Shown one piece after another: positions 13,158 to 62,805 of a DNA stretch of 64,000 bases. The notes under the pieces were generated by a model. The model was given only the letters and a program-made list of their open reading frames with translations. It did no database searches and was not told the DNA's origin. Location of the stretch: positions 9,075-73,074 of the forward strand of contig CAYUFB010000002.1 of the NCBI GenBank assembly GCA_964444125.1, written 5' to 3'. A program made the translations under genes and the position numbers. Numbering within the stretch: the stretch's first letter is position 1; each line of letters starts with the position of its first letter. Origin of the DNA: an uncultured Candidatus Saccharibacteria bacterium. GTDB lineage: Bacteria > Patescibacteriota > Dojkabacteria > B142 > JAFGMG01.

Positions 13158-13175
13158 AATAATTACGTTAAAAGA

Positions 13176-23359: not shown

Positions 23360-23764
23360 ATGGATGATTGTGTTTTCTGTAAAATTGTAAATGGCGAAAT
23401 TCCTTGTTATAAGATTTATGAAGATAGTCAATTTTTGGGATTTCTTGATATTTATCCCGCCAATAAGGGTCAAGCGTTAATCATCCCAAAAGCTCACACA
23501 AGTGCTCAATTCTCGCAGGTACCCGATGATGTTTTAACAGGCGCAATACTTGCTGCAAAATCTCTTGCAGCCAAGATTGAATCTAGTGTTGATAATGTAG
23601 CAAGGTGTATAGTTGCTGTTGAAGGATTTGATGTGGATCATTTTCATATAAAAATATATCCGACATATCTTCCGAATCCAACTGACGAAGCATTTGGCAG
23701 GGGTGGTCAAAAAGCTAATGAGAAAGATCTAAAAGATTTGCAGGAATTGATAAATCAAGATTAG
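23360..23764 (+). CDS. HIT-family (histidine triad) nucleotide hydrolase.
   Basis: CVFCKI N-terminus and the HIT motif DHFHIKIYP. Confidence 0.85.
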   Translation: MDDCVFCKIVNGEIPCYKIYEDSQFLGFLDIYPANKGQALIIPKAHTSAQFSQVPDDVLTGAILAAKSLAAKIESSVDNVARCIVAVEGFDVDHFHIKIYPTYLPNPTDEAFGRGGQKANEKDLKDLQELINQD

Positions 23765-29292: not shown

Positions 29293-29318
29293 CAAAAATT
29301 TCCAATATTTGGTATATT
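29289..29318 (+). promoter_or_regulatory. Sigma-70 type promoter of hsp20: TTGACA (29289-29294), 18-nt spacer, TATATT (29313-29318).
   Basis: Consensus -35 plus a near-consensus -10, about 65 nt upstream of the hsp20 ATG. Confidence 0.55.
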
Positions 29319-29345
29319 TTAGCAGACAGGGGGTGCGGGTGCTAA
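29319..29345 (+). promoter_or_regulatory. CIRCE-like inverted repeat TTAGCAGAC-N9-GGGTGCTAA (putative HrcA operator), just downstream of the -10.
   Basis: Compared with the CIRCE consensus TTAGCACTC-N9-GAGTGCTAA. The TTAGCA/TGCTAA arms are exact and the 9-nt spacer matches. Confidence 0.5.
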
Positions 29346-29383
29346 AGCTCTTTGTCGTATTTTTACTTTTTATCAAATATATT

Positions 29384-29797
29384 ATGAGAATGACTGTTTG
29401 GGATCCATTTGCTGTAGCAAGACGAATGAGAGATATCGATGATTGGAATGATATGTTTGAGTACGATGAGACAGAACTGGATATGTATGAAGAAGAGGAT
29501 AAAGTGGTTGTGAAATTGAAGGCTCCAGGATTTGACGATAAGAATGTGAACATCACAGTTGAAGACAATACTGTAACTATTACAGGTAGCGCGGAAACTA
29601 AGGAGGAAGAGGAGGATAAGGCAAAGAAATATTATAAAAAAGAGATAACTCAAAGATCATTTACTAGAACAGTATCGTTGCCATCAAAAGTTTTGGTTGA
29701 TAAAGCGAATGCTGAGTTTAAAAATGGTATTTTGCAACTAACTCTTCCAAAAGCTGAGGAATCAAAACCAAAGAAGGTTGAGATCAAGGTTAACTAA
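29384..29797 (+). CDS. Hsp20/alpha-crystallin small heat shock protein. ATG 29384 is the likely start; the ORF track starts at 29276.
   Basis: Alpha-crystallin domain VKLKAPGFDDKNVNITVEDNTVTITG...AEFKNGILQLTLPK. Confidence 0.85.
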   Translation: MRMTVWDPFAVARRMRDIDDWNDMFEYDETELDMYEEEDKVVVKLKAPGFDDKNVNITVEDNTVTITGSAETKEEEEDKAKKYYKKEITQRSFTRTVSLPSKVLVDKANAEFKNGILQLTLPKAEESKPKKVEIKVN

Positions 29798-30958: not shown

Positions 30959-31618
30959 TTACCTCACTTCCACTAAATCCCACCAAAGAATTAGGCGTTC
31001 TTTGAGGCCATTATTACATGTCTGCATAGTAAGTGTTGGGGTATCAGATTGGCTTGTATAAACACTTGTTTCGCTTGGTTCAACAATTTTTGAAGTTCTA
31101 AACGAATATGTGTAAGTTATTCCGTTGTAATAAATATAGGCAATATCCCCTGGTTTGATCTTATCAAGATTTGCAAAGAAGCCGTTTTGTTTGCCATCAT
31201 AGTTTGACCTGTGTGCAAACAAATACACATTACCGTCTTTTGTTGCCTCATCAGGAAGAAGTGTGAACTTACCATGTGCAATATATTGATCTAGGACAGG
31301 TATATATTCTTCTTTGTATCTTGGGTCCGTATTTGCCCAGATATCGTGTTTGAGATTAATTGAGGGGATTTCTAGAGCGAAATTCGCATAAGTTTCTTCA
31401 GTCAGATTAGTTTCATTATTGGCAGTCGTTTCTGCAAGAACAGGCACTGAAAGGCTATCATTAAGTAAAAAACTATTATTTGCTGTTTTAGATTCTTCAG
31501 TGTGTTCTTCATCAACAGTACTTTCTACTTGTTGATTAATACCAGTAACTAAATTTAGCAAAATATTGCCAAATAATACTATTAGTATTAAATTTGAAAG
31601 AATAATTAATTTTCGCAT
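30959..31618 (-). CDS. Sortase-family transpeptidase with an N-terminal TM anchor.
   Basis: Catalytic signatures LFAHRS (His), LTMQTCNNG (TLxTC Cys) and a following Arg (KERL). Confidence 0.8.
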   Translation of the reverse strand: MRKLIILSNLILIVLFGNILLNLVTGINQQVESTVDEEHTEESKTANNSFLLNDSLSVPVLAETTANNETNLTEETYANFALEIPSINLKHDIWANTDPRYKEEYIPVLDQYIAHGKFTLLPDEATKDGNVYLFAHRSNYDGKQNGFFANLDKIKPGDIAYIYYNGITYTYSFRTSKIVEPSETSVYTSQSDTPTLTMQTCNNGLKERLILWWDLVEVR

Positions 31619-39509: not shown

Positions 39510-39773
39510 ATGGAAAAAGAACTAAAAAAATTAATGAAAGCAAATAAAACATTGTTTTGGGATATATCAGAAGAGGCTCTAAATGGGCTTTCTCAAAATG
39601 CTGTGGTAACAAGGATTGTTGAATATGGAGATATGGGCTCTTTCAAGAAATTAGTTGACCTAAATGCAGATTTATTGAAGGATCTTGCAAATTCCCAAAT
39701 GCATAAAGGTAGAGTGAACTTGTCCAAAAGAATCATAAATTTTATAAACACATATTTTGAGTACAATTCATAA
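39510..39773 (+). CDS. Small hypothetical protein; putative partner or antitoxin of the downstream nucleotidyltransferase.
   Basis: 87-aa ORF overlapping the next gene by 17 nt. Confidence 0.4.
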   Translation: MEKELKKLMKANKTLFWDISEEALNGLSQNAVVTRIVEYGDMGSFKKLVDLNADLLKDLANSQMHKGRVNLSKRIINFINTYFEYNS

Positions 39774-40368
39774 GCAAGTTTTAAATGATAAACAACTTGA
39801 GCTACTTCCTCTACTACATAAGTTTTATAAATTTTATTTAGCAGGAGGTACTGCTTTGGCTCTCCAAATTGGGCATAGGAAATCTATTGATTTTGATTTG
39901 TTTTCAAAAGAAGAAATAGACAAAAATGCAATATTAAAAGTACTTGACCAACGAAAGGTTAATCAGATTATTGTTGATAGTATTGACGAATTCACGTTTG
40001 TTTACGATGGGGTAAAATTGACATTTTTAAATTTTCCGTTCCGGATAGAGGAGTTTGTTGATTTAGAATTTGTAAAAGCTGTTGATTTTCTTACGATTGC
40101 TGCTATGAAAGCATATGCCCTGGGTAGACGTGCTAAGTGGAAAGATTATGTTGATATTTATTTTATTATTCAAAAGGAATCCATTAATTCTATTATTCAC
40201 AAAGCAGAGGAACTTTTTGGAAATTTATTCTCAGAGAAGCTTTTTCGTTCTCAGCTTTGTTATTTTGAGGACATTGATTATTCAGAGAAGGTTGACTTCG
40301 TAGCAGATCACGAAGTTAACGATGAACAGGTCAAGGAAACATTGAAGCGGATTGCTGTGACTTTCTAA
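39757..40368 (+). CDS. Nucleotidyltransferase-fold protein of the AbiEii/AbiGii toxin type.
   Basis: YLAGGTALALQIGHRKSIDFDLF matches the GGTAL...hR.S.DhD signature of AbiEii-family nucleotidyltransferases. Confidence 0.5.
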   Translation: MSTIHKQVLNDKQLELLPLLHKFYKFYLAGGTALALQIGHRKSIDFDLFSKEEIDKNAILKVLDQRKVNQIIVDSIDEFTFVYDGVKLTFLNFPFRIEEFVDLEFVKAVDFLTIAAMKAYALGRRAKWKDYVDIYFIIQKESINSIIHKAEELFGNLFSEKLFRSQLCYFEDIDYSEKVDFVADHEVNDEQVKETLKRIAVTF

Positions 40369-40373
40369 ATTTT

Positions 40374-41420
40374 TTAGTTAGACTTTCCTTTTAGCTTCCT
40401 TTTCCAATTTTCAAACTTCTCATAATAATGAGTGAAGTTGTATTTGAAGCTTACCGGTATGTCTCTAGCATGGATCCACTTTTCTGCACGTCCTCCAAAT
40501 CCCACCTTAAATAGTCCAAGTCCAGCCCATGGGTCTTCCATGTCAAGTTCGTTTTTTTCATTTAATGGTAGTCCCCAGAAATTGTGTTTCTCTAAACCAC
40601 GTTTCTTTGCTTCTTTAATTGCTTCCCACTGCATCAGATAGCTGGCAGGGATTTTTTGATACTCGCTTAAACTTCCTGAGTGATGATAAACACTTTGATT
40701 ATTGTAGAAATTAAATATGGCAGAAGCTATGTATTTGCCTTCATATTTTGCAAGAAATAGAACATTTTGATCGTCTTCTAAAAAAGCTTCAAATTCATGC
40801 TTTATATAATCAAATGAATATGCTGTCCATTTGTGCCTTTGTACAGTATCTTGGAATATCTCCCAAAAAATTTCCAGTTTGCCTAGATCTTTCGTTTGTT
40901 CAATAGTCACACCCATTTTTGTCGCTTTGCGAATTAAGTATCTGGTGTTTTTGCGCATACTTTGCAGTAGGCTTTCCTCTGTGTCGTTTAGATCAAGAAC
41001 CCATGTTTCTTCCGCATCAATCCCATGCATTTGGGATTTTTTTGTTTCGGTTTCTAATATTTTTGAATTTTCGATTAATGGGCTGATTCTTACAAACCAT
41101 GCACCTTCATTTTTTGCCACTTGTTTTAGCTCGCCTATTACAAACTCTACCAATCTAGTATCCTGCCAGTTTATAACTGGGCCATGTCTAAAATGGAGAT
41201 ACTTGCCTCTTCTTGCTTCAACCTTCGTTCCAAGTGCAACCCCAATTAAATTGTCGTTCTCATAAATACCTAAGCGAAAAATTTTTTGTTTTTGGCTTAT
41301 TAGAAAATTTCCCCAATTCCATGATTGAATAAATGAGGTAGGGGAGGTCGTTTTTCCTGCATTGTTTGTTATAAATTCTTCCCAATTCTTTTTGTCTTCA
41401 ATTTCTTTAATTAAATACAT
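40374..41420 (-). CDS. FemAB-family peptidoglycan cross-bridge aminoacyltransferase, second copy.
   Basis: MRKNTRYLIRKATKMGVTIE plus the overall FemX architecture; 348 aa. Confidence 0.75.
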   Translation of the reverse strand: MYLIKEIEDKKNWEEFITNNAGKTTSPTSFIQSWNWGNFLISQKQKIFRLGIYENDNLIGVALGTKVEARRGKYLHFRHGPVINWQDTRLVEFVIGELKQVAKNEGAWFVRISPLIENSKILETETKKSQMHGIDAEETWVLDLNDTEESLLQSMRKNTRYLIRKATKMGVTIEQTKDLGKLEIFWEIFQDTVQRHKWTAYSFDYIKHEFEAFLEDDQNVLFLAKYEGKYIASAIFNFYNNQSVYHHSGSLSEYQKIPASYLMQWEAIKEAKKRGLEKHNFWGLPLNEKNELDMEDPWAGLGLFKVGFGGRAEKWIHARDIPVSFKYNFTHYYEKFENWKRKLKGKSN

Positions 41421-46721: not shown

Positions 46722-47663
46722 TTGAGTATGAAAAAATATTTGTGTTTATTGTTGATATTGATAGTGGTTGGGTTCGGATCATTTGCAAATATGGTTTTGG
46801 CACAGGAGGCGTCTGATATAATACGGCTAACTTGTACTGAAATCTATGGGAAAAACTTAGAAAGACTTGAATGTAGCGATGATTCAATCTGTAATAGTGA
46901 AAAAAGTTACTACTTGGATAATCATGATGGCAAGTGCGAGATCGCTGCTGGTGATTGTAGGCCAGGCTAACTTGTATGTAAAAATGCTGAATCTATACAA
47001 GGTTTTTTCGAATATTGTTGTGATACAAATCCATCATCTCTGTTTGATCCTAATAACACGAATATTCCTATTGAGGATAGGGTATCTTGTAATGATGATA
47101 AATTGAAAAAGTCAATTAGTGCTGAAAGTAGTCTTGATCAGGGGATGAAGGTAAATAATTGTAGGTCATTGTCTAGTGCAGAAGATGTAAACAATATTAC
47201 GAAATGCGATTTTGAACATTTTTGCTCAATTGATAATTCTCCATATTGTTGTGATTATACCCCACCAGGCACGCAAGTAGTAGATTCAGTCTCAGAAGAC
47301 TCATTTAAGTGGTGTAAGGATATGGATGGAGAAGAATTGCAGAGATGTTCGGAATGTATAGGAACAAGATCAAATCCAACAGGGGCGATATGGACGGAGC
47401 TTGGATGTATTGACCCATCTCCAGCAGGGATCATAACGAGGATATTCTAGATAGGTATAGGAATTATGGGAGGAGTGATAATAATCAGGTTGATACAGAT
47501 TTCGTTGTTATACTTGAAAGAAGATGCGCAGAGTATAGAGGAGGCAAGAGATATGCTAACAAGTTTGATAATGGGATTAATATTATTGGTAGGAGGAGTA
47601 GTGTTATTACAATTTGTGGGAGTAAATATCCTAGGACTTCCTGAGGGTTATCTTGGAGGTTAA
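46722..47663 (+). pseudogene. Decayed paralog of the hairpin-protein family. One reading frame is broken by an in-frame TAA (46968-46970) and an in-frame TAG (47448-47450).
   Basis: Signal peptide, Cys-rich ectodomain, the conserved NPTGAIWTELGCIDPSPAGIITRIF segment and the two-TM hairpin are all in one frame. TAG 47448 corresponds to CAG in the intact paralog at 59148. Confidence 0.6.
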
Positions 47664-50427: not shown

Positions 50428-51510
50428 ATGAGCACTGCTGAATCAACTCCTGATCCAAGTTTGGCTATTCAAGAAGCGCCGGGATTGGATATTGTAGCGC
50501 CTCCAGAGATACCAGTATCTTCAGTAAATCCTCGAATTGAGACGCATTCAGCAACAACTCAGATTGGATCTCGGACTGCAATAAAATATATTGATAGATC
50601 AGATATGCCAGCTGCAGAAGCAGAAAGAGCCCTAAAGGTAAATTTGGCGCTAACAAAACACGCTGTGATTTCTGATCAAGATATTGCCAATGCACTTGAT
50701 AAAGAAATGGTAAAAAAAGAGTTGATGAGGCTTGACCGCGGTGCGACAATAATTGATCGAATAAAAGAGAGTGTAACAATGCCAGATTTCAAAGATAAGC
50801 TCAAAAAGCTCGCTTGGAATGGTTTGAAATATGGCTATTGGGGATTTTTTGCATATGGAGTACTTACAGGTACAAGCCCTATTGGAGTAGTTAAAGATAT
50901 TGTCAGTATACCTGGTAGAATAGGGGATTTGGTTAATACGGGTGCAGACAACTTAATTAGCTTTCTTGGTTTGGAATCTAAGCCTGCGGGAGGTCCCCAG
51001 AATACATCAGGCGACATACTTCAGTCAAAGATTCCATCTGGAAGACTATTTGATACGCCGGTATTTGATGATGATGGAGAAATGACTAATAAAGGTGGGA
51101 CATTTTTCAATCTGTTTAAGCCACTTTTGGGAAAGGATCTAGCAACTTCATTGACAAAAACAGTAGGTACACCTTTTGTCGGAATATTTGGTTCTCTTGC
51201 ACAAAATACGAAGTATCCTGTTGAAGGGAAGTGGGGACCTTTTTTGGCTTATCCAGCGGTTTATTATGGAGGTAAGAAGCTTGGTCTATGGAATGAATTA
51301 TATACAAGACTTAAAGGAGATAGTACAGGTAACTTAAATCAAATGAAGAGACAAGAAATTGAAGCATTGAAAGAAAAAGCAAGAAATGAACTACTCTCAG
51401 GAAACTGGGAAGGTTATTCAGAGATTAGACTTGCCATTGATAATATAGGTGAAAGATATAAAGGAATTGAAAATCAATTAATTCGCCAACGTAGGGCTTT
51501 AGTGGCATAA
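50428..51510 (+). CDS. Hypothetical protein downstream of ftsZ.
   Basis: 360-aa ORF, 18 nt after the ftsZ stop. Confidence 0.5.
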   Translation: MSTAESTPDPSLAIQEAPGLDIVAPPEIPVSSVNPRIETHSATTQIGSRTAIKYIDRSDMPAAEAERALKVNLALTKHAVISDQDIANALDKEMVKKELMRLDRGATIIDRIKESVTMPDFKDKLKKLAWNGLKYGYWGFFAYGVLTGTSPIGVVKDIVSIPGRIGDLVNTGADNLISFLGLESKPAGGPQNTSGDILQSKIPSGRLFDTPVFDDDGEMTNKGGTFFNLFKPLLGKDLATSLTKTVGTPFVGIFGSLAQNTKYPVEGKWGPFLAYPAVYYGGKKLGLWNELYTRLKGDSTGNLNQMKRQEIEALKEKARNELLSGNWEGYSEIRLAIDNIGERYKGIENQLIRQRRALVA

Positions 51511-51517
51511 CAAATTT

Positions 51518-51982
51518 ATGTTAAATCTAGTTGTATTAGAACAATTAATCAAATTTAGTATCCCTGATAAATCATTGCAGGATAGGTATATCAAGGGGAT
51601 CTCTGCTGCAATTCAGGATCTTTTTTTCAATTTGTTGAGTATCTTTCTAATTGGGTCTGTCAAAGACAGATTAGCGCTAGAGGGGTTTATTGACCTAGTC
51701 AATAAGTTAGAAGAAGATTTTGATCCAACAGATATGGAAAGAACCAGAGATTGGTTAGAAACAAATATAGATCTAGATACGGATGCTTTTATGGATGAAT
51801 ATATAAGTAGGGTAGATAAAATGCAGCTAGACCTTATCAAAATCTTCTCAAAGAATATAACAGAAGAGCAAAAAATAGAATTAATTAATATAATTGATAA
51901 ACAATTAATAGAATTAGAAAAGAACAGAGAAGAAGTTGATACGATGAAAGAAGCCCTAGAGGTTTTAAGATTTAATCAATAG
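51518..51982 (+). CDS. Hypothetical acidic protein.
   Basis: 154-aa ORF, co-directional with ftsZ. Confidence 0.45.
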   Translation: MLNLVVLEQLIKFSIPDKSLQDRYIKGISAAIQDLFFNLLSIFLIGSVKDRLALEGFIDLVNKLEEDFDPTDMERTRDWLETNIDLDTDAFMDEYISRVDKMQLDLIKIFSKNITEEQKIELINIIDKQLIELEKNREEVDTMKEALEVLRFNQ

Positions 51983-52844
51983 GTCTTGCAATAGCTACAA
52001 ATCTTTTTGCATTATTCCCATTTGGGTAACAGGTAAAAAGGGTCAGTGTAGATTTGTTCTTTTGTCCTGTGATGATTGATACATCTTCTGGCTTGACGAT
52101 TTTGGTTTGCACAACTCTGTATTTATGGGTTTGGCCTTCGATTTCTATGCTTACCTCATCTCCAATCTTGATTTCACTTAGTTTCGAGAAGGCGGCCGTG
52201 ATATCTTTGGTCCTAGAATAATAATCTCCTCCAGCACTGTGTCCATATATAACAATATTATTATTAATATCGGAAATAGGAAGGCTCGTACCTTTGAAGT
52301 GGGCTAGAGCACCTTTTAGGGCTTCTTGATATGCGCTTTCAACTCCACTTTCCACATTTGGTTTTACGGGTAGGGAGTTTAATTCCAATGAAGGGATTGA
52401 AATTTTGAAATTGTTTTTGTATTCAAGGCTGACAGGGTCATTTTGCAATACATGTTGAGATAGGGCGTCTTTGGTCAATTCCTTAAAATATTCAGATCCC
52501 GGGTTTGAAAGATATGTCTCTTTGGGTCGTATTGAATCTCCTTTGACAAGTTCCGGTCTACCACTTTCATAATAACCAGAAATCTCTCTTGCTCTCTGTT
52601 TCATTTCAGGAAAGATCTGCCTGGAAAGGATTATGCTGCCTGCAATGATAAACAATGAAGGGATCAAAATCCTTGCAAGCGTTGAAGTTTTTATCAAGTT
52701 ATTGAAATCATTTCGAATACCCACAAGCAGATCCCATAATGTCGTTGGTGGGATTTCTTCTTTTTCGATTTCAATTTCTCTACTATAAATCTCTCCGGGG
52801 TCACGAAATTTCACAGCTCTTTTTTTGTAACTCTTTAGAGGCAT
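51972..52844 (-). CDS. Sortase-family transpeptidase, second copy, with a TM anchor.
   Basis: IVIYGHSAGG (His), TLTLFTCYP (TLxTC Cys) and a downstream Arg. Confidence 0.8.
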   Translation of the reverse strand: MPLKSYKKRAVKFRDPGEIYSREIEIEKEEIPPTTLWDLLVGIRNDFNNLIKTSTLARILIPSLFIIAGSIILSRQIFPEMKQRAREISGYYESGRPELVKGDSIRPKETYLSNPGSEYFKELTKDALSQHVLQNDPVSLEYKNNFKISIPSLELNSLPVKPNVESGVESAYQEALKGALAHFKGTSLPISDINNNIVIYGHSAGGDYYSRTKDITAAFSKLSEIKIGDEVSIEIEGQTHKYRVVQTKIVKPEDVSIITGQKNKSTLTLFTCYPNGNNAKRFVAIARPID

Positions 52845-55286: not shown

Positions 55287-55670
55287 TTGAATCAAAGCTA
55301 TGTTAGCATGAGAAAAGGAAAACTTATGAACATGATTTTGGATTTTTTTAAAAAATATATTTTTGGATTTTTTGCGTGGTGGTATTTAGTCAAAGGCCGT
55401 GAGGTGGTTGATTATTTTTCTCGAACGATTCTGAAATATTTCGTTAGATTGAATATTGGGCCAATGCTTGGGAACCTCTTTGCTCCAATGTTCCAAGACA
55501 AATCACTTACGGGTAGGTTTATTGCATTTCCAATAAGATTGATTTGGGGTCTTGGGGGATTGATTATTGAATTAATAATAATCGCTATTGGTTTAGTCTT
55601 TCTGCATATATATTTCCTTTTGCCAATAGCAGTCATTTATCAGATAGTTACATTTGTAGTGCTTAAATGA
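55287..55670 (+). CDS. Small polytopic membrane protein, first gene of the operon. The start may be ATG 55326.
   Basis: Hydrophobic helices; its stop overlaps the Clp-like start by 4 nt (ATGA). Confidence 0.5.
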   Translation: MNQSYVSMRKGKLMNMILDFFKKYIFGFFAWWYLVKGREVVDYFSRTILKYFVRLNIGPMLGNLFAPMFQDKSLTGRFIAFPIRLIWGLGGLIIELIIIAIGLVFLHIYFLLPIAVIYQIVTFVVLK

Positions 55671-58243
55671 AGATAGTTAACAAAAAATTAAAAATTGGTA
55701 AATACAAGGAAATGGAGGTTTTTGTTGATTGGGCATACCTTCAAAAGGGTAGAGGACTTAGAAAAAAAGAAGATCTACTGCAACTTGCTTTTGGGCGGTT
55801 CTTGTTTGTTATTGCTGTTATAGCAATGACAATTATAACTATTGCCCAAATATCACTTGGTAATTTCATTGTTTTTGAGGCAATCAAAAACGACTCACAA
55901 ATTAGTTTGGTCTTTTGGCTTGTTTTAGCTTTGTTTCTTTATGCTTCGTATCTACTTCGTGATAGGTCCAAGTTTTTTGATACTCTGGATCTGAAGGCAT
56001 TGACTAAATTGGCAAAAGATATTGAAGATAATAATAGCCCAAAAGAAGTTGAAATTCTGGATTTCGTCGATTATGACGTATTAAATACCTTAGATAAATT
56101 GCTTGAGAATAATCAGGAAAATATTTATGAGAATTTAATGATTGATTTACTTGAATTACAAGATGTTGGTCAGTTAATCAACAGGCTTGGGATTCAAAAA
56201 GAAATATTGCTGAACGAAATTGGGCAATTAGATATGACAATAGAAGGTGATAAGGTTTATCAAATTAATAAACTGCTATATCAATCATTTGTCATGGGGC
56301 TTGATTATAAATTTAGTTTTATTGGTGAATGGATAATTTTCTTGAAATTAGCTCTCGATGAATATAACCAGGTTTTTATGAAATTAGGAATTACAAAAGG
56401 AACTTTATTATCTGTTCTGGAGTGGACAAAGGCGCAGGCAATGGGTAATAGATATAGGAAATTATGGAAATATAAAGCATCTCTAAAACCAAGAAGCACT
56501 GTCAATCGAAGCTATACATCAGCACACACACCTACTTTAAATAAATATTCTAGAGATTTGACCAGGGAAGTAATTGATGGAGAATTTAGTTATGCGTTAA
56601 GTAGAGAGACTGAAATTGCTGATGTGATTAGGTATTTGAAGCCAGAAAAAGGTGCTGTATTGTTACTTGGTGAAGCTGGTGTAGGAAAGACCACAATCCT
56701 AAAAAGTATCGCAGTGAAGATGGTGGTAGAGGATGTCCCTTCAAACCTGAAAGATAAGAGACTTGTGGAATTTGATTTTCACCGTGCCGTGACGCAAGCA
56801 CTAGATACCTCAAAGCTTAGAGCTTTAATTGAAGATATTATAGTTGAGGTTGGCAAATCCAAAAATGTTGTATTGGTTATTGACGACTTGGATGAATTGA
56901 TTGGATTGAAAGATGATATTTCAGATGAAATTGTCTCAACTTTGCATAAAGCGTTGTCTAATAATTCAATTAGTCTTGTTGCTACTTCATCAAATGAGGG
57001 GTATATAAAATCTATCAAGCCAAATACGCAGCTAGCAAATATTTTTGATGTTGTGCGTATTGATGAGCCATCACCAGAAATTGCTCTACAGATAATATTT
57101 GACGAGAGATCTAAGCTTGAGGATATGTACAATATCAAAATTCAATTTGATGCCTTGAAATCTGCTATTGAGCTTACTGATAGATATGACAAAACAAGGG
57201 TCTTCCCATTTAAGGCAATTGACACATTAGAAGATGCTTGTGTCTTGGCTCTTGAAGAGGGACTAGGTTTTGTTTCAGCTTCTCAAGTTGAGGCTGTGGT
57301 TAGCAAAGATGCAGGCATCAAGGTCGGGAGACTTGATGAGACTGAGGGGCAGAAACTACTGCAACTTGAAGATAGGATGAAACGCAGAGTGATCGGGCAG
57401 GATAACGCTATAAAAGCAGTAGTTTCTGCCCTGAAAAGAGCTAGGGCAGGTCTAGTATCAAAAAATAAACCTCTTTCGTCATTCCTGTTTTTTGGCCCAA
57501 CCGGTGTGGGCAAAACTGAAGTGGCGAGAACTTTGGCTGCTGTTTATTTTGGTGATGAGAAATTGATTACTAGAATTGATATGTCTGAATTTCAAGAAGA
57601 GAAAAATGTCTCAAGGTTGATTGGTTCGTCTGATGAAGATGGTTTTGTGGGAGGGCAATTGACTGAAAAGGTGAGAGAGCATCCGTTTTCTCTAATTCTC
57701 CTGGATGAGATTGAGAAAGCAAACCCCAAAGTCTTAGATTTATTCTTGCAGGTTTTAGATGAAGGTCATATCAAGGATGGTCTAGGAAGGGTCGTGGATT
57801 TCAAAAATACTATTATTATTGCGACGTCAAATATTGGATCTAAATCTATTGCTGATAGTTTCTCAAAAGAAATTTCATATGAAAAAACTGAAAGAATGGC
57901 GAAGGAAGAATTGAAAAAGTATTTAAGGATTGAATTTATTAACAGATTTGATAAAGTGATAATGTTTAAACCATTATCCAAAATTGAGATAGAAAAAATT
58001 GCTGGATTGATGATGAACCAGGTCGTAGATAGATTGAAAGAGCAAGGGATAGGTTTGAAATTTGAAGCTCAATTATTAAGCCAGCTTGCACAAAAAGGTT
58101 ATAGTCTAATGTATGGAGCAAGAGAAATGCGAAGGGTTATTCAAGATGAGGTCGAGACGAGAATTGCTGATATGATAGTGGCAGGCAAGCTTAAATCAGG
58201 GGATACTTTAACTATTAAGTCCTTGGAGGAATTTGAAGTATGA
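55667..58243 (+). CDS. Membrane-anchored ClpC/ClpB-like double AAA+ ATPase: two N-terminal TM helices, Clp_N-like repeats, then D1 and D2.
   Basis: D1 LLLGEAGVGKTTI with VVLVIDDLDE. D2 FLFFGPTGVGKTE, IDMSEF, ILLDEIEKANPKV, sensor GAREMRRVIQ, and PTLNKYSRDLT. Hydrophobic helices lie at about residues 45-95. Confidence 0.8.
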   Translation: MKIVNKKLKIGKYKEMEVFVDWAYLQKGRGLRKKEDLLQLAFGRFLFVIAVIAMTIITIAQISLGNFIVFEAIKNDSQISLVFWLVLALFLYASYLLRDRSKFFDTLDLKALTKLAKDIEDNNSPKEVEILDFVDYDVLNTLDKLLENNQENIYENLMIDLLELQDVGQLINRLGIQKEILLNEIGQLDMTIEGDKVYQINKLLYQSFVMGLDYKFSFIGEWIIFLKLALDEYNQVFMKLGITKGTLLSVLEWTKAQAMGNRYRKLWKYKASLKPRSTVNRSYTSAHTPTLNKYSRDLTREVIDGEFSYALSRETEIADVIRYLKPEKGAVLLLGEAGVGKTTILKSIAVKMVVEDVPSNLKDKRLVEFDFHRAVTQALDTSKLRALIEDIIVEVGKSKNVVLVIDDLDELIGLKDDISDEIVSTLHKALSNNSISLVATSSNEGYIKSIKPNTQLANIFDVVRIDEPSPEIALQIIFDERSKLEDMYNIKIQFDALKSAIELTDRYDKTRVFPFKAIDTLEDACVLALEEGLGFVSASQVEAVVSKDAGIKVGRLDETEGQKLLQLEDRMKRRVIGQDNAIKAVVSALKRARAGLVSKNKPLSSFLFFGPTGVGKTEVARTLAAVYFGDEKLITRIDMSEFQEEKNVSRLIGSSDEDGFVGGQLTEKVREHPFSLILLDEIEKANPKVLDLFLQVLDEGHIKDGLGRVVDFKNTIIIATSNIGSKSIADSFSKEISYEKTERMAKEELKKYLRIEFINRFDKVIMFKPLSKIEIEKIAGLMMNQVVDRLKEQGIGLKFEAQLLSQLAQKGYSLMYGAREMRRVIQDEVETRIADMIVAGKLKSGDTLTIKSLEEFEV

Positions 58244-59358
58244 GAAAGGTTTTTATTTTTGTTGCATTGCTTTTACTCATATCCTTCACTGGATTAATAA
58301 AGATTAAGGCTCAAAACAGCATATTTAACAGGAATTCTACACATGCTTCTTATGCGACATATGTTTTTGATTGTGCGGGAAGCGAGATTGAATTAGCGGT
58401 GCCAAATGTTGTGCCTTCTTCTTATGATAGTTTTGAATATTATGTTGAAAGGAGTGCAGGAGATGAAATAGTTGTCTTAATATATAAGCAATTAAATAGT
58501 TCTCCTCAGTTGGATGCGATAAGATCTTTTTCGACTTCTGGTACCGGAACTATTCCGTTAGACATATTGGATTACCAAACCGGTAGTATTCAATATAGAG
58601 TTGGTATGGCTATGAATGAGGTCTGTACTCTTCAAGGTAGCACGGATACAACCGTTTCTATTACTATTACAGACAATATAAAAACCACTTCGGACTGTCC
58701 TAATGGTGAATTTCTCCAGATTTCTAATGGAAGAGTTGAAAATAGTAGGGTAATTGTTGATATAAATGCTTGTGTTGATAGTTCGTCAAGGTATTCATTT
58801 ATAGATTTAACAGATAATCCTACCTCAATCATGGATGAAATAGGCACTGGAGAAATTGCAAGAGAATTGACAATAAGGAAATACGATAGTCCTATACGAG
58901 TAATTGTTGAAGGATATATAAATGGTTCTATGATTAAAAGATATGCAATTGACTTAAACGTTACAACAGAAATAATTGAATCGGTCTCGGAAGACTCATT
59001 TAAAGGATGTGGAGAGATGGGGGAGGATGAGAAGGCAGCGTGTATAAGATGTGTAGGTACTAAATCAAATCCAACAGGGGCGATATGGACGGAGCTTGGA
59101 TGTATTGACCCATCTCCAGCAGGGATCATAACGAGGATATTCCAGATAGGTATAGGAATTATGGGAGGAGTGATAATAATAAGGTTGATACAGATATCAT
59201 TATTGTATTTAAAAGATGATGCACAGAGTTTGGAAGAAGCGAGAGATATGTTGACAAGTTTGGTAATGGGATTGATATTGTTGGTAGGAGGGGTAGTGTT
59301 GTTACAATTTGTAGGAGTCAATATCTTGGGCCTACCTGAAGGATATCTTGGAGGTTAA
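58240..59358 (+). CDS. Array member A (372 aa): signal peptide, ectodomain, conserved Cys-containing juxtamembrane segment, and a C-terminal two-helix hairpin.
   Basis: The start overlaps the Clp-like stop (ATGA). C-terminus is IFQIGIGIMGGVIIIRLIQISLLYL-KDDAQSLEEARDMLTS-LVMGLILLVGGVVLLQFVGV. Confidence 0.6.
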   Translation: MRKVFIFVALLLLISFTGLIKIKAQNSIFNRNSTHASYATYVFDCAGSEIELAVPNVVPSSYDSFEYYVERSAGDEIVVLIYKQLNSSPQLDAIRSFSTSGTGTIPLDILDYQTGSIQYRVGMAMNEVCTLQGSTDTTVSITITDNIKTTSDCPNGEFLQISNGRVENSRVIVDINACVDSSSRYSFIDLTDNPTSIMDEIGTGEIARELTIRKYDSPIRVIVEGYINGSMIKRYAIDLNVTTEIIESVSEDSFKGCGEMGEDEKAACIRCVGTKSNPTGAIWTELGCIDPSPAGIITRIFQIGIGIMGGVIIIRLIQISLLYLKDDAQSLEEARDMLTSLVMGLILLVGGVVLLQFVGVNILGLPEGYLGG

Positions 59359-59421
59359 TGCTATTAGCTTGACCCCGAGTACTTGTAACTGTAGACTGAT
59401 AATTAAATATTAAATTGATCA

Positions 59422-59790
59422 ATGATGTCATTTCAAAGATTGGTTGTTTTCATGCTAATTTCATTAAGTTATCTAGCTCCTATGGCTGTTATGGCAGAGA
59501 CATTGGACACTTCAATAGGTACTATCCAAAGTCCATTGGGAGATACTGATATGTTTGGGCTCATTGAGAGACTTGTAGGATATGTTAGGCCAATTATTGC
59601 AATCACATTCCTTTTTGTAATTATTTATGGAGGTTATACCAGGATGACCGCAGCAGGGGATCCGGAAAAAGAGAAGAAGAGCAATTCAATTCTTACAGCA
59701 GGGGTAATTGGTTTTGCTATTATTGTCCTCGCTCCTGCGGTAGTTAGATTAGTTAGCTCACTTATAGGAATACAAGGAGATGTTGTCTAA
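59422..59790 (+). CDS. Array member B: a bare 122-aa VirB2/TrbC-like pilin-type subunit (signal peptide plus two-helix hairpin).
   Basis: Signal peptide ...APMAVMA; TM1 IIAITFLFVIIYGGY, loop TRMTAAGDPEKEKKSN, TM2 AGVIGFAIIVLAPAVV. Confidence 0.6.
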   Translation: MMSFQRLVVFMLISLSYLAPMAVMAETLDTSIGTIQSPLGDTDMFGLIERLVGYVRPIIAITFLFVIIYGGYTRMTAAGDPEKEKKSNSILTAGVIGFAIIVLAPAVVRLVSSLIGIQGDVV

Positions 59791-60535
59791 ATATACAAAA
59801 ATATTAAGCTTTATCACCGTACTAGTTGCGGGTTATTTTTTGTTTGTTACTGGCGTTCAGGCACAGAATTTTTCTGAATGTATTAGGGATAAAACAGTTA
59901 ATCAAACTGGTTATGTCTGCAGTTTGTGTGGTGATTCTGCCATAGATGCCGAAAGGGAATCAAATTGTGATAAACGTGTAATTGAAGGATATAAATGGGA
60001 TGCAAGTACCTGTAGTTGTATAAACACAAAGAGTAGTTGTTCTGGGATTTCTGAAAATGTTCAAAAGAGTCGCAAAGTTCAATGTTTTGCCAATGGGAAT
60101 ATGTGGAATTATTCAAGTTGTGAATGTATAAATAGTCAAACAGCAATGCCAATTGTTATGTCGCCTACCGTTGATAATGGATTAGGTAATGGATTGGACG
60201 ATACTACTAATAGTATCATCGGTATTTTTGATCGGGTCTTTTTCAAGACTAATTTCGATGGATCTGTCGACAACGTCTCTGAACTTATCAGAATGGCGTT
60301 TATTATTATTTTCATGATTATTGCTATTGTGGCATTTTTCTTAGGTATTTATGGAATGTATCTCTATAGTACAGCATTTGATGATGACGAGAAGGTTTCC
60401 AAAGCACAGAAGATTTTCAAAGATGCTTTGATTGGACTATTTATTGCTATTGCAGGTATTGTGCTTGTGCAGGTAGTCGCGATATTTTTGGGAGTAGATA
60501 GTGCTGATCTTTTTACTTTTAATGTAAGCAATTAA
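59780..60535 (+). CDS. Array member C (251 aa): signal peptide, Cys-rich ectodomain (12 Cys), and a C-terminal two-helix hairpin.
   Basis: AAGGAG ribosome-binding site inside the end of B. Hairpin IIFMIIAIVAFFLGIYGMYLYS-TAFDDDEKVSKAQKIFKD-ALIGLFIAIAGIVLVQVVAIF. Confidence 0.6.
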   Translation: MLSKYTKILSFITVLVAGYFLFVTGVQAQNFSECIRDKTVNQTGYVCSLCGDSAIDAERESNCDKRVIEGYKWDASTCSCINTKSSCSGISENVQKSRKVQCFANGNMWNYSSCECINSQTAMPIVMSPTVDNGLGNGLDDTTNSIIGIFDRVFFKTNFDGSVDNVSELIRMAFIIIFMIIAIVAFFLGIYGMYLYSTAFDDDEKVSKAQKIFKDALIGLFIAIAGIVLVQVVAIFLGVDSADLFTFNVSN

Positions 60536-60545
60536 AATAGAATTT

Positions 60546-61127
60546 ATGAAGAAAATTTTTTTCATTTTCGCAATAATTTTTATTTCTCTTGGCTCGTTGG
60601 GGCAGGTATTTGCACAGACTCAAGAGGAGGTTCAAGAAAATGGGGTTAATATTCAAGTTGGAGAGAATACCTTAAATCTAGATATCTTTGACCCAACGGG
60701 AGGTTGGGGGAATGTAGGAATTCTTGCACTATTGGGTTTGATTGGACAATTAATTTTTGGTTTACTTGTAGTCGTTTGGATATTTATAGCTTTGCTATCT
60801 GGTTTGAAAATAGTAAGAAGTCAGGGCAAAGCAGAAGATATTGAATCTGGCACTGGAGCTATAGGCAATATGCTTAAAGGTATTACGTTTGGTCTCCTGT
60901 TTTTTGTAGCAGTGTCTGTTATTGGTATGATCACGGGTGCCGGCACTGTCTTTGAATGGTCTGATAATTTGCAGGAATGCTCATGTGAAGCATCAGTTGA
61001 AGGAACTCCTTGTTATACATATAAATTCCAGGCTGAGGCCAGTGTGGAAGAAGAAACTGTTTGGGCATGTGAGAGAGATCAGCATGGCTCAAAATTCGGC
61101 AAAGGATGGTTTTCTAGTTTGGATTGA
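60546..61127 (+). CDS. Array member D (193 aa): signal peptide, two-helix hairpin, and a C-terminal Cys-containing domain.
   Basis: GILALLGLIGQLIFGLLVVVWIFIALL-SGLKIVRSQGKAEDIESGTGAIGNMLKG-ITFGLLFFVAVSVIGMI. Confidence 0.6.
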   Translation: MKKIFFIFAIIFISLGSLGQVFAQTQEEVQENGVNIQVGENTLNLDIFDPTGGWGNVGILALLGLIGQLIFGLLVVVWIFIALLSGLKIVRSQGKAEDIESGTGAIGNMLKGITFGLLFFVAVSVIGMITGAGTVFEWSDNLQECSCEASVEGTPCYTYKFQAEASVEEETVWACERDQHGSKFGKGWFSSLD

Positions 61128-61179
61128 CTTTTGTTTGTTAAATCGTTATCCTGATTTTATATATTAATTTAAATTCAAA

Positions 61180-61731
61180 ATGAAAAAGTACCTTACAAAA
61201 GGAGCTTTGGTGTTAGTAGTTTCGTATTCGTTCGCTAATGTGGCATATGCACAAAGTCTTCTACCTGCATTTATGGATGAGTTTTTAAATGATTGGAATA
61301 ATACAAATTCTGTCGATAAGATTAGTGGATTTATCAGGCTTGCTTTGACACTTGCATTTGGTGTTGTAATCCTTGCTGCTGTAGCATATTCTATTATGGC
61401 TGCTATCAAATACATCAAGAGTCAAGGAGATGCTGGTCAAGTGGAAGAAGCGAACAAAGCTATCAAAGCAATATTTCAAGGAGTTGTAGCTATGTTTGTA
61501 GGTATTATTGGGGTTGTTTTGGTATTCTTCATATTCAATGTCGCTCTTCCAGATCCAAGTATACCTTCTATTTGTGTGAAATGTCCAGAAAGTAATACTT
61601 GTAGGGTTTGTAGTGAAGGTAAACAAGAAAAGGGTGGAACGGATTATGTTTTGTCGGGTAATCCAAAATCGCCAGCAACAGAAGATGAGTGTAATCCAAA
61701 AACAGATACTATAGATTGTGAAGATTATTAA
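61180..61731 (+). CDS. Array member E (183 aa): signal peptide, two-helix hairpin, and a C-terminal Cys-rich domain (10 Cys).
   Basis: LALTLAFGVVILAAVAYSIMAAI-KYIKSQGDAGQVEEANKAIKAI-FQGVVAMFVGIIGVVLVFFIF, then CVKCPESNTCRVCSEG. Confidence 0.6.
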   Translation: MKKYLTKGALVLVVSYSFANVAYAQSLLPAFMDEFLNDWNNTNSVDKISGFIRLALTLAFGVVILAAVAYSIMAAIKYIKSQGDAGQVEEANKAIKAIFQGVVAMFVGIIGVVLVFFIFNVALPDPSIPSICVKCPESNTCRVCSEGKQEKGGTDYVLSGNPKSPATEDECNPKTDTIDCEDY

Positions 61732-61761
61732 TTGTTTTGCTGGGTTAATTAAAGATAATAG

Positions 61762-62805
61762 GTGAAAGCAATTTTATCGGTTCGTTTTATAATCATATTT
61801 TTGTTAATTGCCTTCTTGCTGGTAGGTTCGGTTTTTGCTCAATTTGGCTCTGGCGATGAACCTGCCAGGCTTCGTGACCTTGAGCCTCTTTTGGTGCAAC
61901 TGATTTATGTGATATGGGCACTTGGTGGGATAATATTTACAGCTGCGTTGATGTTTATAGGGTTTCTCTACATGACAAGTGCTGGAGATCCTCAAAAACA
62001 AGAGGCTTTGAAGAAACGCGCGACAAATTGGCTTTTTGGACTGATTCTGTTTTTCGCGGGATACCCATTGGTGTTGACTGCGTACAATGTTTTAGATATA
62101 GGTCAATCAAATCCGGATTGTTATAAATCAGTTTCAACTCCTGGGTTTCATTTTTTCTTCCCCGATGTATGTACTGATCCACTAGAGGGAACAGAGTTTC
62201 TTGTTGGTCAAACGGTTCAGAAAGCAAATTTAACTGAAGAAGAATTTATACAGAAACTTATAGATGGAAAAAGATGTGTCTTAAATGATAAATATGCTCC
62301 CGTAGAAAGCTATATATTTTCAAAAGATGATTATAAATTGTATAAGTACAAAATGGAAAGCAATGGGAATTGCTTGAAATATGATATTGTAGTACGTAAT
62401 TCAGTAGATATGAGGAATAGAGAGTATTTATATGTTTTCAGAGATGGTAAAATATTTGAGGAAGATGGGACATTCTATGTTTACGGAGGCAACTGTAGTA
62501 ATGATGGTATAAAAAACACGGGCAGGCAAGATATGTGTTGTTTGGGTGATCAGGGAAAACATTTCGTTGTTCCTTCCAGGACAGCTTCTGAAAATGATGA
62601 GCAGGGAGGATCCAAACGTCAGTATGTCAGAATGCTTGATGGGACAATAACATATTTTTGGTATGATGCAAAAGGAAATGATATTGGTGCGTGTGATTGT
62701 GAAAGGGATGGAAATACAACTGGGAGTGGTACTACTTGTAAATCTTTTTCAGGTGTAAGAGTATCTTTAGATTTATCTAATATCAGTGGGGTCCAAGTCC
62801 CATAG
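61762..62805 (+). CDS. Array member F (347 aa): signal peptide, two-helix hairpin with a TSAGDPQKQE loop, and a large C-terminal Cys-rich ectodomain.
   Basis: LIYVIWALGGIIFTAALMFIGFLYM-TSAGDPQKQEALKKRATNW-LFGLILFFAGYPLVLTAY. At least 12 Cys lie downstream. Confidence 0.6.
   Translation: MKAILSVRFIIIFLLIAFLLVGSVFAQFGSGDEPARLRDLEPLLVQLIYVIWALGGIIFTAALMFIGFLYMTSAGDPQKQEALKKRATNWLFGLILFFAGYPLVLTAYNVLDIGQSNPDCYKSVSTPGFHFFFPDVCTDPLEGTEFLVGQTVQKANLTEEEFIQKLIDGKRCVLNDKYAPVESYIFSKDDYKLYKYKMESNGNCLKYDIVVRNSVDMRNREYLYVFRDGKIFEEDGTFYVYGGNCSNDGIKNTGRQDMCCLGDQGKHFVVPSRTASENDEQGGSKRQYVRMLDGTITYFWYDAKGNDIGACDCERDGNTTGSGTTCKSFSGVRVSLDLSNISGVQVP

Follow-up and report, generated by a model that had tools for sequence, protein, structure and literature searches.

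The 64-kb stretch of DNA analysed here (the window) carries a gene for a Clp/Hsp100-type AAA+ ATPase which, judged from its sequence, belongs to a membrane-anchored two-ring Clp family found across the Patescibacteria, as its Dojkabacteria (WS6) form. Hsp100/Clp unfoldases are textbook soluble machines. The function proposed for this one, to which an even chance is given, is that of a ClpP-independent, D2-driven, membrane-anchored unfoldase, working with a small protein encoded upstream, that extracts membrane proteins and does not export them. No description of such a protein is present in the searchable full text, including that on CPR type IV secretion and genetics, which is not proof of novelty.

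The gene and its window

55667..58243, + strand: membrane-anchored Clp/Hsp100-type AAA+ ATPase, whole gene, 858 aa
55326..55670, + strand: small membrane partner protein, 114 aa from the ATG at 55326 (ORF list, alignment; the mechanical ORF begins at TTG, 55287)

Overlaps of 4 nt flank the Clp gene on both sides. Its ATG overlaps the stop codon of the upstream partner gene (ATGA), and at the other end its stop codon shares bases with the start that follows (GTATGA, with GGAGG 9 nt upstream), an overlap that had been claimed in the initial annotation. Promoter and terminator scans of 54.9-63.2 kb did no better than with shuffled sequence. A tblastn search found no second Clp, in agreement with the claim of a single ClpB/ClpC in the 64 kb; the lack of a second ClpB in such a stretch says little. 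The 64-kb window also has no gene for ClpP, VirB4 or VirB6, and T6SS genes are absent from it and from the related loci. An anti-phage defence system was considered and rejected because PADLOC gave only generic AAA_2-region matches (DolB, PDC-M37B); the genes neighbouring the Clp gene had no PADLOC match.

A transmembrane hairpin ahead of the Clp domains

55685..55729, + strand: N-terminal cytoplasmic beta-hairpin, residues 7-21 (AlphaFold models; comparison with sequences of the wider family)
55790..55858, + strand: transmembrane helix 1, residues 42-64 (hydropathy, conservation, AlphaFold model, charge)
55901..55957, + strand: transmembrane helix 2, residues 79-97, then a conserved YLxRDR motif (same bases as helix 1)

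Two hydrophobic segments lie where they had been reported, with 19-residue Kyte-Doolittle means that peak at 2.49 and 2.29, and in the rest of the Clp protein no segment exceeds 1.6. The position of both is kept across 19 homologs of 42-63% identity, in which the flanking motifs are conserved as well (DWxYL..RGLRKE before the first helix, YSxYLxRDR after the second). On average the N-terminal flank carries 4.1 Lys plus Arg residues, the 14-residue loop 1.1 and the C-terminal flank 3.7, by which the hairpin obeys the positive-inside rule. The predicted N-in/C-in hairpin would tie the N-domain, D1 and D2 to the cytoplasmic face of the membrane, and the notion of a membrane-tethered Hsp100 is supported. 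How the entry face is placed with respect to the bilayer is not fixed, because the linker from the second helix to the N-domain is of low confidence (pLDDT <50 at residues 101-108 in AlphaFold models).

It is extremely improbable that the anchor is an artefact of annotation, the true start being 3′ of the hydrophobic segments or the helices being amphipathic and not membrane-spanning. The ATG at 55667 is without a strong Shine-Dalgarno sequence, but residues 1-100 are conserved as protein in the 19 homologs, the stretch preceding the first helix included, and the ATG overlaps the upstream stop. Up to residue 330 the only later Met codons are those at 16 (before the first helix), 54 (inside it) and 158 or beyond (in the N-domain), and the two segments average a hydropathy of 1.8-2.3 with few charged residues across homologs. 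Both objections, which had been named in advance as ways to refute the anchor, are rejected on conservation, overlap, Met positions and hydropathy, and the annotated start codon is upheld.

Domain architecture and known relatives

56000..56482, + strand: divergent Clp N-domain, residues 112-272, all-helical double repeat
56528..57256, + strand: D1 AAA+ module and lid, residues 288-530 (Pfam, alignments)
57344..57955, + strand: D2 AAA+ module, residues 560-763 (Pfam, alignments)
57974..58216, + strand: ClpB_D2-small domain, residues 770-850, with sensor-2 GAREMRR (Pfam, homolog alignment)

The tandem AAA+ arrangement is that of a class-1 Clp/Hsp100 protein, with a D1 of AAA type and a D2 of AAA_2 type (Pfam E-values: AAA 3.9e-18, AAA_lid_9 4e-09, AAA_2 4.7e-53, ClpB_D2-small 1.1e-21), and it is preceded by a double Clp_N repeat domain whose Clp_N fold is supported. 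The initial annotation had all catalytic motifs intact, which is right for D2 and wrong for D1, where only Walker A is kept. Alignment to T. thermophilus ClpB and S. aureus ClpC shows D1 to have an intact Walker A (GEAGVGKTT), a Walker B that is I-D-D and not I-D-E (D407 stands for Glu), ALDTSKLRA in place of the KYRGEFEER pore loop (the Tyr is missing, D380 being aligned with it) and ANIF in place of ERRF, N-I replacing the R-R arginine fingers. D2 has GPTGVGKTE, LLDEIEKA, a G-F-V-G pore loop, TSN, NRFD and GAREMRR, with sensor-1 N722 and Arg finger R760 intact. D1 is probably a nucleotide-binding, hydrolysis-poor scaffold ring. A Walker B change from Glu to Asp lowers hydrolysis in other AAA+ proteins; it does not prove that D1 is inactive here. 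In the mechanism proposed, D1 would be a structural, nucleotide-binding assembly ring and D2 would be the motor.

An M-domain and a UVR linker were both looked for in the Clp protein and found in neither case: 22 residues stand in place of the 83 in ClpC and about 145 (143-151) in ClpB, there is no PF02151 match, and no long coiled coil appears in the AlphaFold model between residues 530 and 558. An IGF/LGF ClpP loop is likewise absent, with a gap opposite the RFAGFGG of S. aureus ClpC. The protein would act alone, without ClpP and without ClpB-style DnaK coupling.

The top Foldseek matches of the full model are ClpC, ClpB and ClpA. E. coli ClpA, a class-1 Hsp100, has the same order of Clp_N-D1-D2-D2small, is likewise without an M-domain, and is the only one among solved Hsp100s that aligns uninterrupted (query 275-851 to ClpA 153-734). 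However, it is soluble and has an IGL ClpP loop, an active D1 and a pore-loop Tyr, which the query does not, and against TIGR02639 the query scores 409.4 bits, well below the cut-off of 993.15. ClpB/Hsp104 gives the best overall sequence scores (1qvr at E 9e-114) and also has no ClpP loop, and SNIGSKSIADSF after sensor-1 of the query resembles the SNLGS segment of ClpB. In contrast to the query with its degenerate D1, ClpB is soluble, with a coiled-coil M-domain for DnaK coupling and two active rings; the catalytically competent D1 that marks ClpB is not seen in the query, which reaches 471.7 bits with TIGR03346 (equivalog cut-off 1232.1). ClpC/ClpC1 heads the Foldseek matches to the full model, and D1 aligns to it slightly better than to ClpB (109 bits), but its UVR half-M-domain, ClpP loop and adaptor-controlled activity have no counterpart in the query. 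For ClpV/TssH (TIGR03345) the score of 396.3 bits is again below the cut-off (884.95). The shortfall against the ClpB, ClpA and ClpV models speaks for a family distinct from all three.

A Patescibacteria-wide family with a constant small partner

Orthologs with the same N-terminal extension, for which a search had been suggested, are abundant. A profile search over 1.84 billion representatives found the N-terminal module in 157 representative clusters, nearly all of 830-930 aa. In a motif table of 209 sequences, 95 of them canonical ClpB/ClpC, nearly all members of the transmembrane family have the N-terminal segments, all have 22-27 residues replacing the M-domain and are without the D1 pore-loop Tyr, most are missing the D1 Walker B Glu and the Arg fingers, and all but one keep K/DE/N/R/R in D2. 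The 95 canonical proteins have K[YF]DETRR/KYDENRR, with a credible transmembrane segment in none. The window protein has the features that mark the family, namely the hairpin before Clp_N, a degenerate D1 with an intact D2 and no M-domain, and the partner upstream. Most other members, typically those of 880-930 aa, have an extra N-terminal CxxC..CxxC zinc ribbon. The beta-hairpin of the window protein sits where the wider family has this ribbon and a 'fxYWgk' motif; the cysteines are lost, and there is no CxxC pair in the first 90 residues of this or other Dojkabacteria-type members, an absence that sets these members off as a subfamily and is compatible with membership.

Related loci were collected by a full-length alignment search (80 loci covering about 22 kb per genome, half of them ordinary ClpB used as negative controls). 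The partner gene (~110 aa) is directly upstream of Clp, usually overlapping it, in all 49 family loci where this could be checked, and is absent in 41 comparison loci without an N-terminal match, mostly ordinary ClpB. Besides the motifs WWY and N-[LF]-F-x-P-[ML]-[FY]-Q-D-x-S-x-x-G-R, its product shows a hydrophobic hairpin at the C-terminus; it forms at least 1208 clusters in Patescibacteria, and has no Pfam match even at E<=5. Natural partner-Clp fusions occur (P0205/P0272/P0273 and L079). We infer that the Clp protein works together with this small membrane protein, and an interaction of the two is predicted. The partner, Clp's most constant neighbour, had been overlooked in the initial annotation.

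Genomic context and possible clients

58240..59358, + strand: pilin-like protein 1, 372 aa, with Sec signal peptide, Cys-rich ectodomain and C-terminal VirB2-like two-TM hairpin
59422..59790, + strand: pilin-like protein 2, 122 aa (T4SS_pilin PF18895)
59780..60535, + strand: pilin-like protein 3, 251 aa (T4SS_pilin PF18895)
60546..61127, + strand: pilin-like protein 4, 193 aa (iterated pilin HMM, E 1.8e-34; signal peptide and 2 TM)
61180..61731, + strand: pilin-like protein 5, 183 aa (weak NCBIfam NF045849 match; pilin HMM)
61762..62805, + strand: pilin-like protein 6, 347 aa (T4SS_pilin PF18895 / TrbC)

The gene that overlaps the Clp stop codon had been described as that of a secreted protein; it is exported, with a Sec signal peptide, and is better named a VirB2-like pilin (its equivalent in L003 has a weak PF18895 match). 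Each of the six downstream proteins begins with a Sec signal peptide of the classical kind, with an AxA|Q site. Matches to the pilin HMM, which was built and iterated in this analysis, are confined to family loci and L013. Six to eight VirB2-like pilin genes follow Clp in 25 of the 26 Dojkabacteria-type loci that have 1.5 kb or more of downstream sequence; the linkage is absent in one Dojkabacteria lineage (L008/L009). This conservation supports the tight coupling to exported, membrane-inserted proteins that had been claimed, and makes a dedicated role plausible. For a cultured Saccharibacterium, VirB2-like pilin arrays have been reported as essential (PMC10633639). The co-transcribed pilin-array proteins would be the likeliest clients in Dojkabacteria. 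They are two-TM hairpins, inserted by Sec, whose cytoplasmic loop is short and charged.

The module is directly after groES-groEL in about 19 Dojkabacteria loci, which fits equally well a general proteostasis chaperone, tethered by chance and serving as an unfoldase or disaggregase of the heat-shock regulon that clears misfolded proteins near the membrane, with functionally unlinked pilin neighbours. To the same side belong a related pair within the hrcA-grpE-dnaK...dnaJ operon of L013, the lack of another Hsp100 in the window, and SEML1_0700/0701 of S. epibionticum, the probable counterpart pair in Saccharibacteria from domain coordinates, gene sizes and overlap, which (the homology being putative) is non-essential with only a late growth defect. 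However, the missing M-domain makes DnaK-coupled disaggregation of the ClpB kind unlikely, D1 has lost its pore loop and hydrolysis residues, and the dedicated membrane partner, like the fusions, suggests a task specific to the membrane. The pilin array is kept in the 25 loci at 36-63% protein identity, beyond chance neighbourhood, and in L012 a canonical ClpB adjoins the family member, which is therefore a paralog and not the cell's only Hsp100. A general chaperone is judged unlikely.

Outside Dojkabacteria the pair has no pilin link and is between mraZ-rsmH and an MraY-like gene, in the dcw cluster. The order is mraZ-rsmH-ftsL-like-partner-TMClp-Glycos_transf_4-DUF192 in L011, L014, L015 and L044 and partner-TMClp-Glycos_transf_4 in L012, and in P0220 the TM-Clp is fused with a Glycos_transf_4 domain. 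(The initial annotation had passed over this linkage.) These arrangements, together with the position of the window pair ~5 kb downstream of ftsQ-ftsA-ftsZ, favour a cell-envelope or division factor that remodels or regulates MraY-like or divisome membrane proteins, pilin adjacency being a secondary rearrangement. Such a role is distinctly unlikely, given that Dojkabacteria have no adjacent MraY-like gene and that the overlapping downstream genes are pilins; the dcw linkage may mirror co-expression with growth, not a shared substrate. In the preferred scheme of an extracting unfoldase, the same module would in other CPR lineages be tied to the dcw cluster and an MraY-like transferase. Because the pilin linkage is specific to Dojkabacteria, absent in L008/L009 and replaced elsewhere by an MraY-like gene, pilins are not the ancestral or only clients.

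Direction of threading and analogous machines

In Hsp100 rings the substrate enters at the N-domain/D1 face and is threaded through to the D2 face. With an N-terminal tether the entry pore therefore faces the membrane and the exit is into the cytoplasm. The machine would pull membrane-embedded or membrane-proximal polypeptides toward the cytoplasm, an action of extraction, dislocation or remodelling, like that of FtsH or Msp1, and not of export. We infer a membrane-inserted hexamer in contact with its partner, with substrates of the kinds considered above. A motor that pushes unfolded proteins outward, via a channel of its own and the partner's transmembrane helices, is very unlikely: threading leads away from the membrane here, the external loop has only ~14 residues, and the signal peptides of the six downstream proteins are those of the classical Sec route. 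Plasmodium HSP101 of PTEX, which is not integral to the membrane, docks its C-terminal D2 face on PTEX150/EXP2 and pushes substrates out; the polarity of the query is opposite. Of the extraction or export role once suggested, a dedicated role is plausible and extraction is favoured, and export is disfavoured by the threading polarity.

FtsH has two N-terminal TM helices and a hexameric AAA+ ring at the cytoplasmic face, its entry pore toward the membrane, and extracts membrane proteins. The likeness lies in the two helices holding an AAA+ ring at that face; FtsH, however, has a single AAA module, which is of a different clade, together with a large periplasmic domain between its TM helices and an M41 protease at the C-terminus, whereas the query has two AAA modules and no Peptidase_M41 match, so the resemblance is an analogy only. 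VirB4, a cytoplasmic-face ATPase, is proposed to pull the two-TM VirB2 pilin from the membrane in type IV secretion. The neighbours of the query are VirB2-like pilins too, but VirB4 is of an unrelated ATPase family. VirB2-like pilin arrays are known in CPR from a paper in which no Clp ATPase is mentioned (10.1101/2025.01.22.634366).

A bolder extension, doubtful as it stands, is that partner and Clp form a Patescibacteria-specific hexameric membrane 'dislocase', serving in Dojkabacteria as the motor of the pilin array and elsewhere in the control of MraY-type enzymes at the division site. Two-TM hairpin proteins would be gripped by their short cytoplasmic loop or their termini and pulled from the bilayer. 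For the variable VirB2-like pilin array of Dojkabacteria it would be a dedicated motor of assembly, turnover or exchange, and would replace or complement the role proposed for VirB4.

Significance

An integral-membrane Hsp100 with a pseudo-ATPase D1 and an obligate small membrane partner would be a new architecture in a heavily studied family. The anchored Clp family is widespread in the Patescibacteria, a large and poorly understood bacterial radiation, and its genes adjoin two features thought to be central to the CPR lifestyle, VirB2-like pilin arrays and the division/cell-wall cluster. If the homology of SEML1_0700/0701 is confirmed, the hypothesis is directly testable in a genetically tractable strain. 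If the dislocase reading is true, the CPR would hold the first integral-membrane Hsp100, a lineage-defining part of their surface biology.

Class and domains of the anchored Clp

The Clp/Hsp100-type AAA+ ATPase encoded at 55667..58243 is membrane-anchored, as the initial annotation had it, and the finding is real and broader than was first seen, though with one factual error, which concerns the first AAA+ ring (D1). The features that bear on this are as follows.

Features of the anchored Clp gene and its upstream neighbour (domains from Pfam)
55326..55670, + strand, partner gene (small membrane protein)
55667..58243, + strand, anchored Clp ORF, 858 aa
Residues 331-454 of the anchored Clp, AAA module (D1)
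Residues 471-526 of the anchored Clp, AAA_lid_9
Residues 601-763 of the anchored Clp, AAA_2 (D2, the second ring)
Residues 770-850 of the anchored Clp, ClpB_D2-small

Pfam matches neither Clp_N nor an M-domain family in this protein. The closest NCBIfam models are ClpB, ClpA, ClpK/G and ClpV, with all curated cut-offs missed by far (ClpB 472 bits against 1232, ClpA 409 against 993 and ClpV 396 against 885). ClpA is the sole solved Hsp100 that aligns to the query as one unbroken stretch, in keeping with the lack of an M-domain. The protein belongs to the Hsp100 superfamily, and is not a ClpA, ClpB, ClpC or ClpV.

Membrane anchor and start codon

When the whole protein is scanned, the 19-residue Kyte-Doolittle mean exceeds 1.6 only at residues 42-67 and 79-97 (peaks 2.49 and 2.29), the two stretches originally picked out as strongly hydrophobic helices. 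Twenty database proteins, all without a Clp_N annotation, align over the full length of the query at 42-100% identity; beyond them the homolog list falls sharply to 35-37%. By the names of the closest homologs, the window comes from a member of Dojkabacteria (WS6), within the Patescibacteria/CPR. Alignment of 19 of the 20 shows the first 100 residues to be conserved: a basic N-terminus (MKIxxKxKIGxYK), a DWxYL..RGLRKE motif preceding helix 1, the two helices at fixed positions and, after helix 2, invariant Y92, R98 and R100 (YLxRDR). AlphaFold models of residues 1-285 (pLDDT 81) and of the full-length protein (pLDDT 79) have a beta-hairpin at 7-21, helices at 29-64 and 78-97, a low-confidence linker at 101-108 and then a helical domain.

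A true start downstream of the helices, raised at the outset as what would undo the anchor, finds no support. The stop codon of the upstream gene overlaps the Clp ATG (CTTAAATGAAG), and the only later Met codons within the first 330 residues are 16, 54 (in helix 1) and 158 or beyond; together with the conservation of residues 1-100, this makes a downstream start untenable. Across the family (the Patescibacteria relatives of the query), Lys plus Arg number about 4 per flank against about 1 in the 13-15-residue connecting loop, and this, with the need for the ATPase domains to be cytoplasmic, gives a predicted N-in/C-in hairpin.

A degenerate first ring and an intact second

Residue-level alignment to T. 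thermophilus ClpB and S. aureus ClpC yields 93-109 bits for D1 and 270-295 bits for D2. The initial statement that both rings have all their catalytic motifs holds for D2, which retains GPTGVGKTE, LLDEIEKA, a G-F-V-G pore loop, sensor-1 TSN, an NRFD arginine finger and sensor-2 GAREMRR, but fails for D1. There Walker A (GEAGVGKTT) is invariant across the family, but Walker B is V-I-D-D where ClpB has F-I-D-E, ALDTSKLRA stands in for the KYRGEFEER pore loop and ANIF for the ERRF arginine fingers. The ClpP-binding IGF/LGF loop, whose presence had been put forward for checking, is absent from the query, a gap facing RFAGFGG of ClpC in the alignment.

These positions were tabulated for 209 sequences, including 95 canonical ClpB/ClpC from the search. 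All 95 have K-[Y/F]-D-E-T-R-R in D1 and K-Y-D-E-N-R-R in D2, and their M-domains measure 83 or 143-151 residues; a credible transmembrane (TM) segment occurs in none of them, though one had a lone 19-residue window over threshold. In every anchored-family member the M-domain position holds just 22-27 residues, which answers the question of an M-domain or UVR linker in favour of an M-domain-less protein. The D1 pore-loop Tyr is missing from every member, the D1 Arg fingers are mostly missing, and the D1 Walker B pair varies, in most members departing from the canonical form (DD, ED, DN, EN, GH, PD and others). All members but one keep the D2 residues, and all but one have N-terminal TM segments. 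We infer that D1 serves nucleotide binding for assembly and that D2 is the motor.

The partner gene

A gene of 105-125 codons, overlooked by gene callers in two loci, runs up to or into the Clp start codon in every locus examined. Its product has a WWY motif, the signature N-[LF]-F-x-P-[ML]-[FY]-Q-D-x-S-x-x-G-R-x-x-x-F-x-x-R and a C-terminal hydrophobic hairpin. The HMM of nine partner sequences matches the ORF directly upstream of Clp in 49 family loci, and has no match in 41 other loci of about 20 kb each. Similarity of these 41 to the query is confined to the part that lies C-terminal of its N-terminal region, and most are ordinary ClpB of other phyla. Synteny with the partner is obligate. 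A database search gives at least 1208 partner clusters, all unannotated and without a Pfam domain. In three proteins (P0205, P0272 and P0273) and in locus L079 the partner and the Clp ATPase form one fused protein, with the partner at the N-terminus, and gene fusion is a classic sign of physical or functional partnership. [The L079 fusion ORF (9236-11800) is in a MAG labelled ‘uncultured Gammaproteobacteria’, and several loci whose synteny is of the Dojkabacteria type bear the label ‘uncultured Candidatus Saccharibacteria’ or Doudnabacteria; these labels probably do not reflect true taxonomy.]

The wider family and its division-cluster setting

The search proposed for orthologs with the same N-terminal extension was fruitful: a profile of residues 1-285, run against 1.84 billion representative proteins (E<=1e-3), matched 157 proteins, nearly all of 830-930 aa. 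Members of 880-930 aa start with a CxxC..CxxC zinc ribbon, often DnaJ-like CxxCxGxG; an ‘fxYWgk’ motif comes next, then the TM region, a Pfam-recognised Clp_N and the degenerate-D1/intact-D2 body. At the zinc-ribbon position the Dojkabacteria form has a beta-hairpin without cysteines. Source names are ‘Patescibacteria group’, Parcubacteria and Uhrbacteria, and the annotations are only Clp ATP-binding subunit or AAA ATPase.

Outside Dojkabacteria the pair sits in the division/cell-wall (dcw) cluster. The order in L011, L014, L015 and L044, and partly in L012, is mraZ-rsmH-ftsL-like-partner-Clp-Glycos_transf_4 (MraY-like)-DUF192. The Glycos_transf_4 family encoded directly downstream of Clp in all five loci is that of the C-terminal multi-TM (MraY/WecA-like) domain fused to Clp in P0220 (1231 aa). 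In L012 a canonical ClpB adjoins the anchored Clp, which must there be a paralog with its own job.

Southlakia epibionticum ML1 has a probable counterpart of the pair, judged by sizes, overlap and domain coordinates, all of which mirror those in the window. SEML1_0700 is an 860-aa ‘AAA family ATPase’ (AAA 276-381, lid 415-471, AAA_2 544-706, D2-small 713-792, no Clp_N match) overlapped by SEML1_0701, a 127-aa hypothetical protein; both score NE/NE/GD in Tn-seq, and a separate canonical ClpC, with Clp_N and UVR domains, is SEML1_0512 (PMC10633639 supplement). A Mur ligase is divergently adjacent to the two genes.

The pilin array in Dojkabacteria

The Dojkabacteria-type loci, among them GTDB species representatives and two complete chromosomes, have the order [groES-groEL, or rpoD and a divergent AI-2E transporter]-partner-Clp-six to eight pilin-like genes-(sbcD)-SpoIID. 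Of the 26 such loci with at least 1.5 kb downstream, 25 have the array, the exception being L008/L009. In the window (58240-62805) all six products have a Sec-type signal peptide ending AxA|Q and a VirB2/TrbC-like hairpin that has two TM segments and a short charged loop; five have a Cys-rich ectodomain, and three reach Pfam T4SS_pilin. As first reported, the Clp stop overlaps the start of an exported-protein gene: the first pilin-like gene begins inside it, with GGAGG 9 nt upstream of that start. Synteny with pilins or with MraY is lineage-specific.

CPR genomes are known to carry arrays of 2-11 VirB2-like genes (10.1101/2025.01.22.634366), reported to be essential in a cultured Saccharibacterium (PMC10633639); no Clp ATPase is mentioned in either paper. 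Some CPR genomes have their T4SS genes close to dnaA (10.1101/2025.01.22.634366). The window is ordinary chromosome with dnaA-dnaN at its beginning (141-2840), which places the Clp-pilin cluster about 55 kb from the probable replication origin.

Matches of an iterated pilin HMM are restricted to family loci and L013, which Pfam also flags. In L013, from another CPR genome, a heat-shock operon (1192-15549) opens hrcA-grpE-dnaK and continues with a pilin-like gene, a TrbL/VirB6-like gene, a soluble Clp of 943 aa that has no M-domain, an S8 protease and dnaJ, followed by a partner-like gene (113 aa) and an anchored Clp (785 aa). Chaperone genes and pilins are here linked a second time, independently. 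The HMM also matches a 65-aa ORF just upstream of ftsA in the window (47466-47663, +), which may represent an isolated pilin-like gene, or else a false match caused by the hydrophobic nature of the profile.

Other genes in the window

Apart from the anchored Clp, the one chaperone gene recognised in the window encodes an Hsp20/alpha-crystallin small heat-shock protein (29276-29797, +). TsaC and TsaE are t6A-pathway components that are usually separate; here a 371-aa protein (23761-24876, -) joins a Sua5/YrdC (TsaC) domain to a TsaE domain, with TsaD close by (20854-22077, -). Two sortases (30959-31618, -; 51972-52844, -) and two FemAB-family peptidyl transferases (3044-4291, +; 40374-41420, -), with MurE-like, GH18 and FtsK genes, make the neighbourhood envelope-rich. 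Directly after ftsZ are two ORFs of 360 and 154 aa without a Pfam match (50428-51982, +); their position is conserved in a JGI contig (L001), and none was seen after ftsZ in L006. A 203-aa ORF (39757-40368, +) aligns to the AbiEii nucleotidyltransferase toxin over the N-terminal part alone (profile 8-69 of 238) and may be a truncated toxin-antitoxin remnant.

Proposed function

The function suggested here is drawn from anatomy and synteny. In Hsp100 hexamers substrate threads from the N-domain/D1 face to the D2 face; DnaK coupling in ClpB is via the M-domain, and docking of ClpP needs an IGF-type loop. The anchored Clp would be a stand-alone, D2-driven unfoldase at the inner face of the membrane. 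Its entry pore would be turned to the bilayer, so that most plausibly it extracts or remodels membrane-embedded proteins, a role likened to membrane-protein extraction by FtsH or Msp1 and to VirB4's proposed dislocation of pilin. The export role that was initially suggested alongside extraction, with the ATPase pushing proteins outward, is much less likely, because threading polarity opposes it and the neighbours' products carry Sec signal peptides. The main rival to extraction or remodelling is a general membrane-proximal quality-control role, in keeping with the groESL genes that adjoin the pair. If the anchored Clp does act on membrane-embedded proteins, those of the pilin array would be its best candidate clients in the window's genome, and the dcw/MraY linkage elsewhere suggests that the client range is wider or shifted. 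The host of SEML1_0700/0701, a cultured and transformable Saccharibacterium, offers a possible experimental handle.
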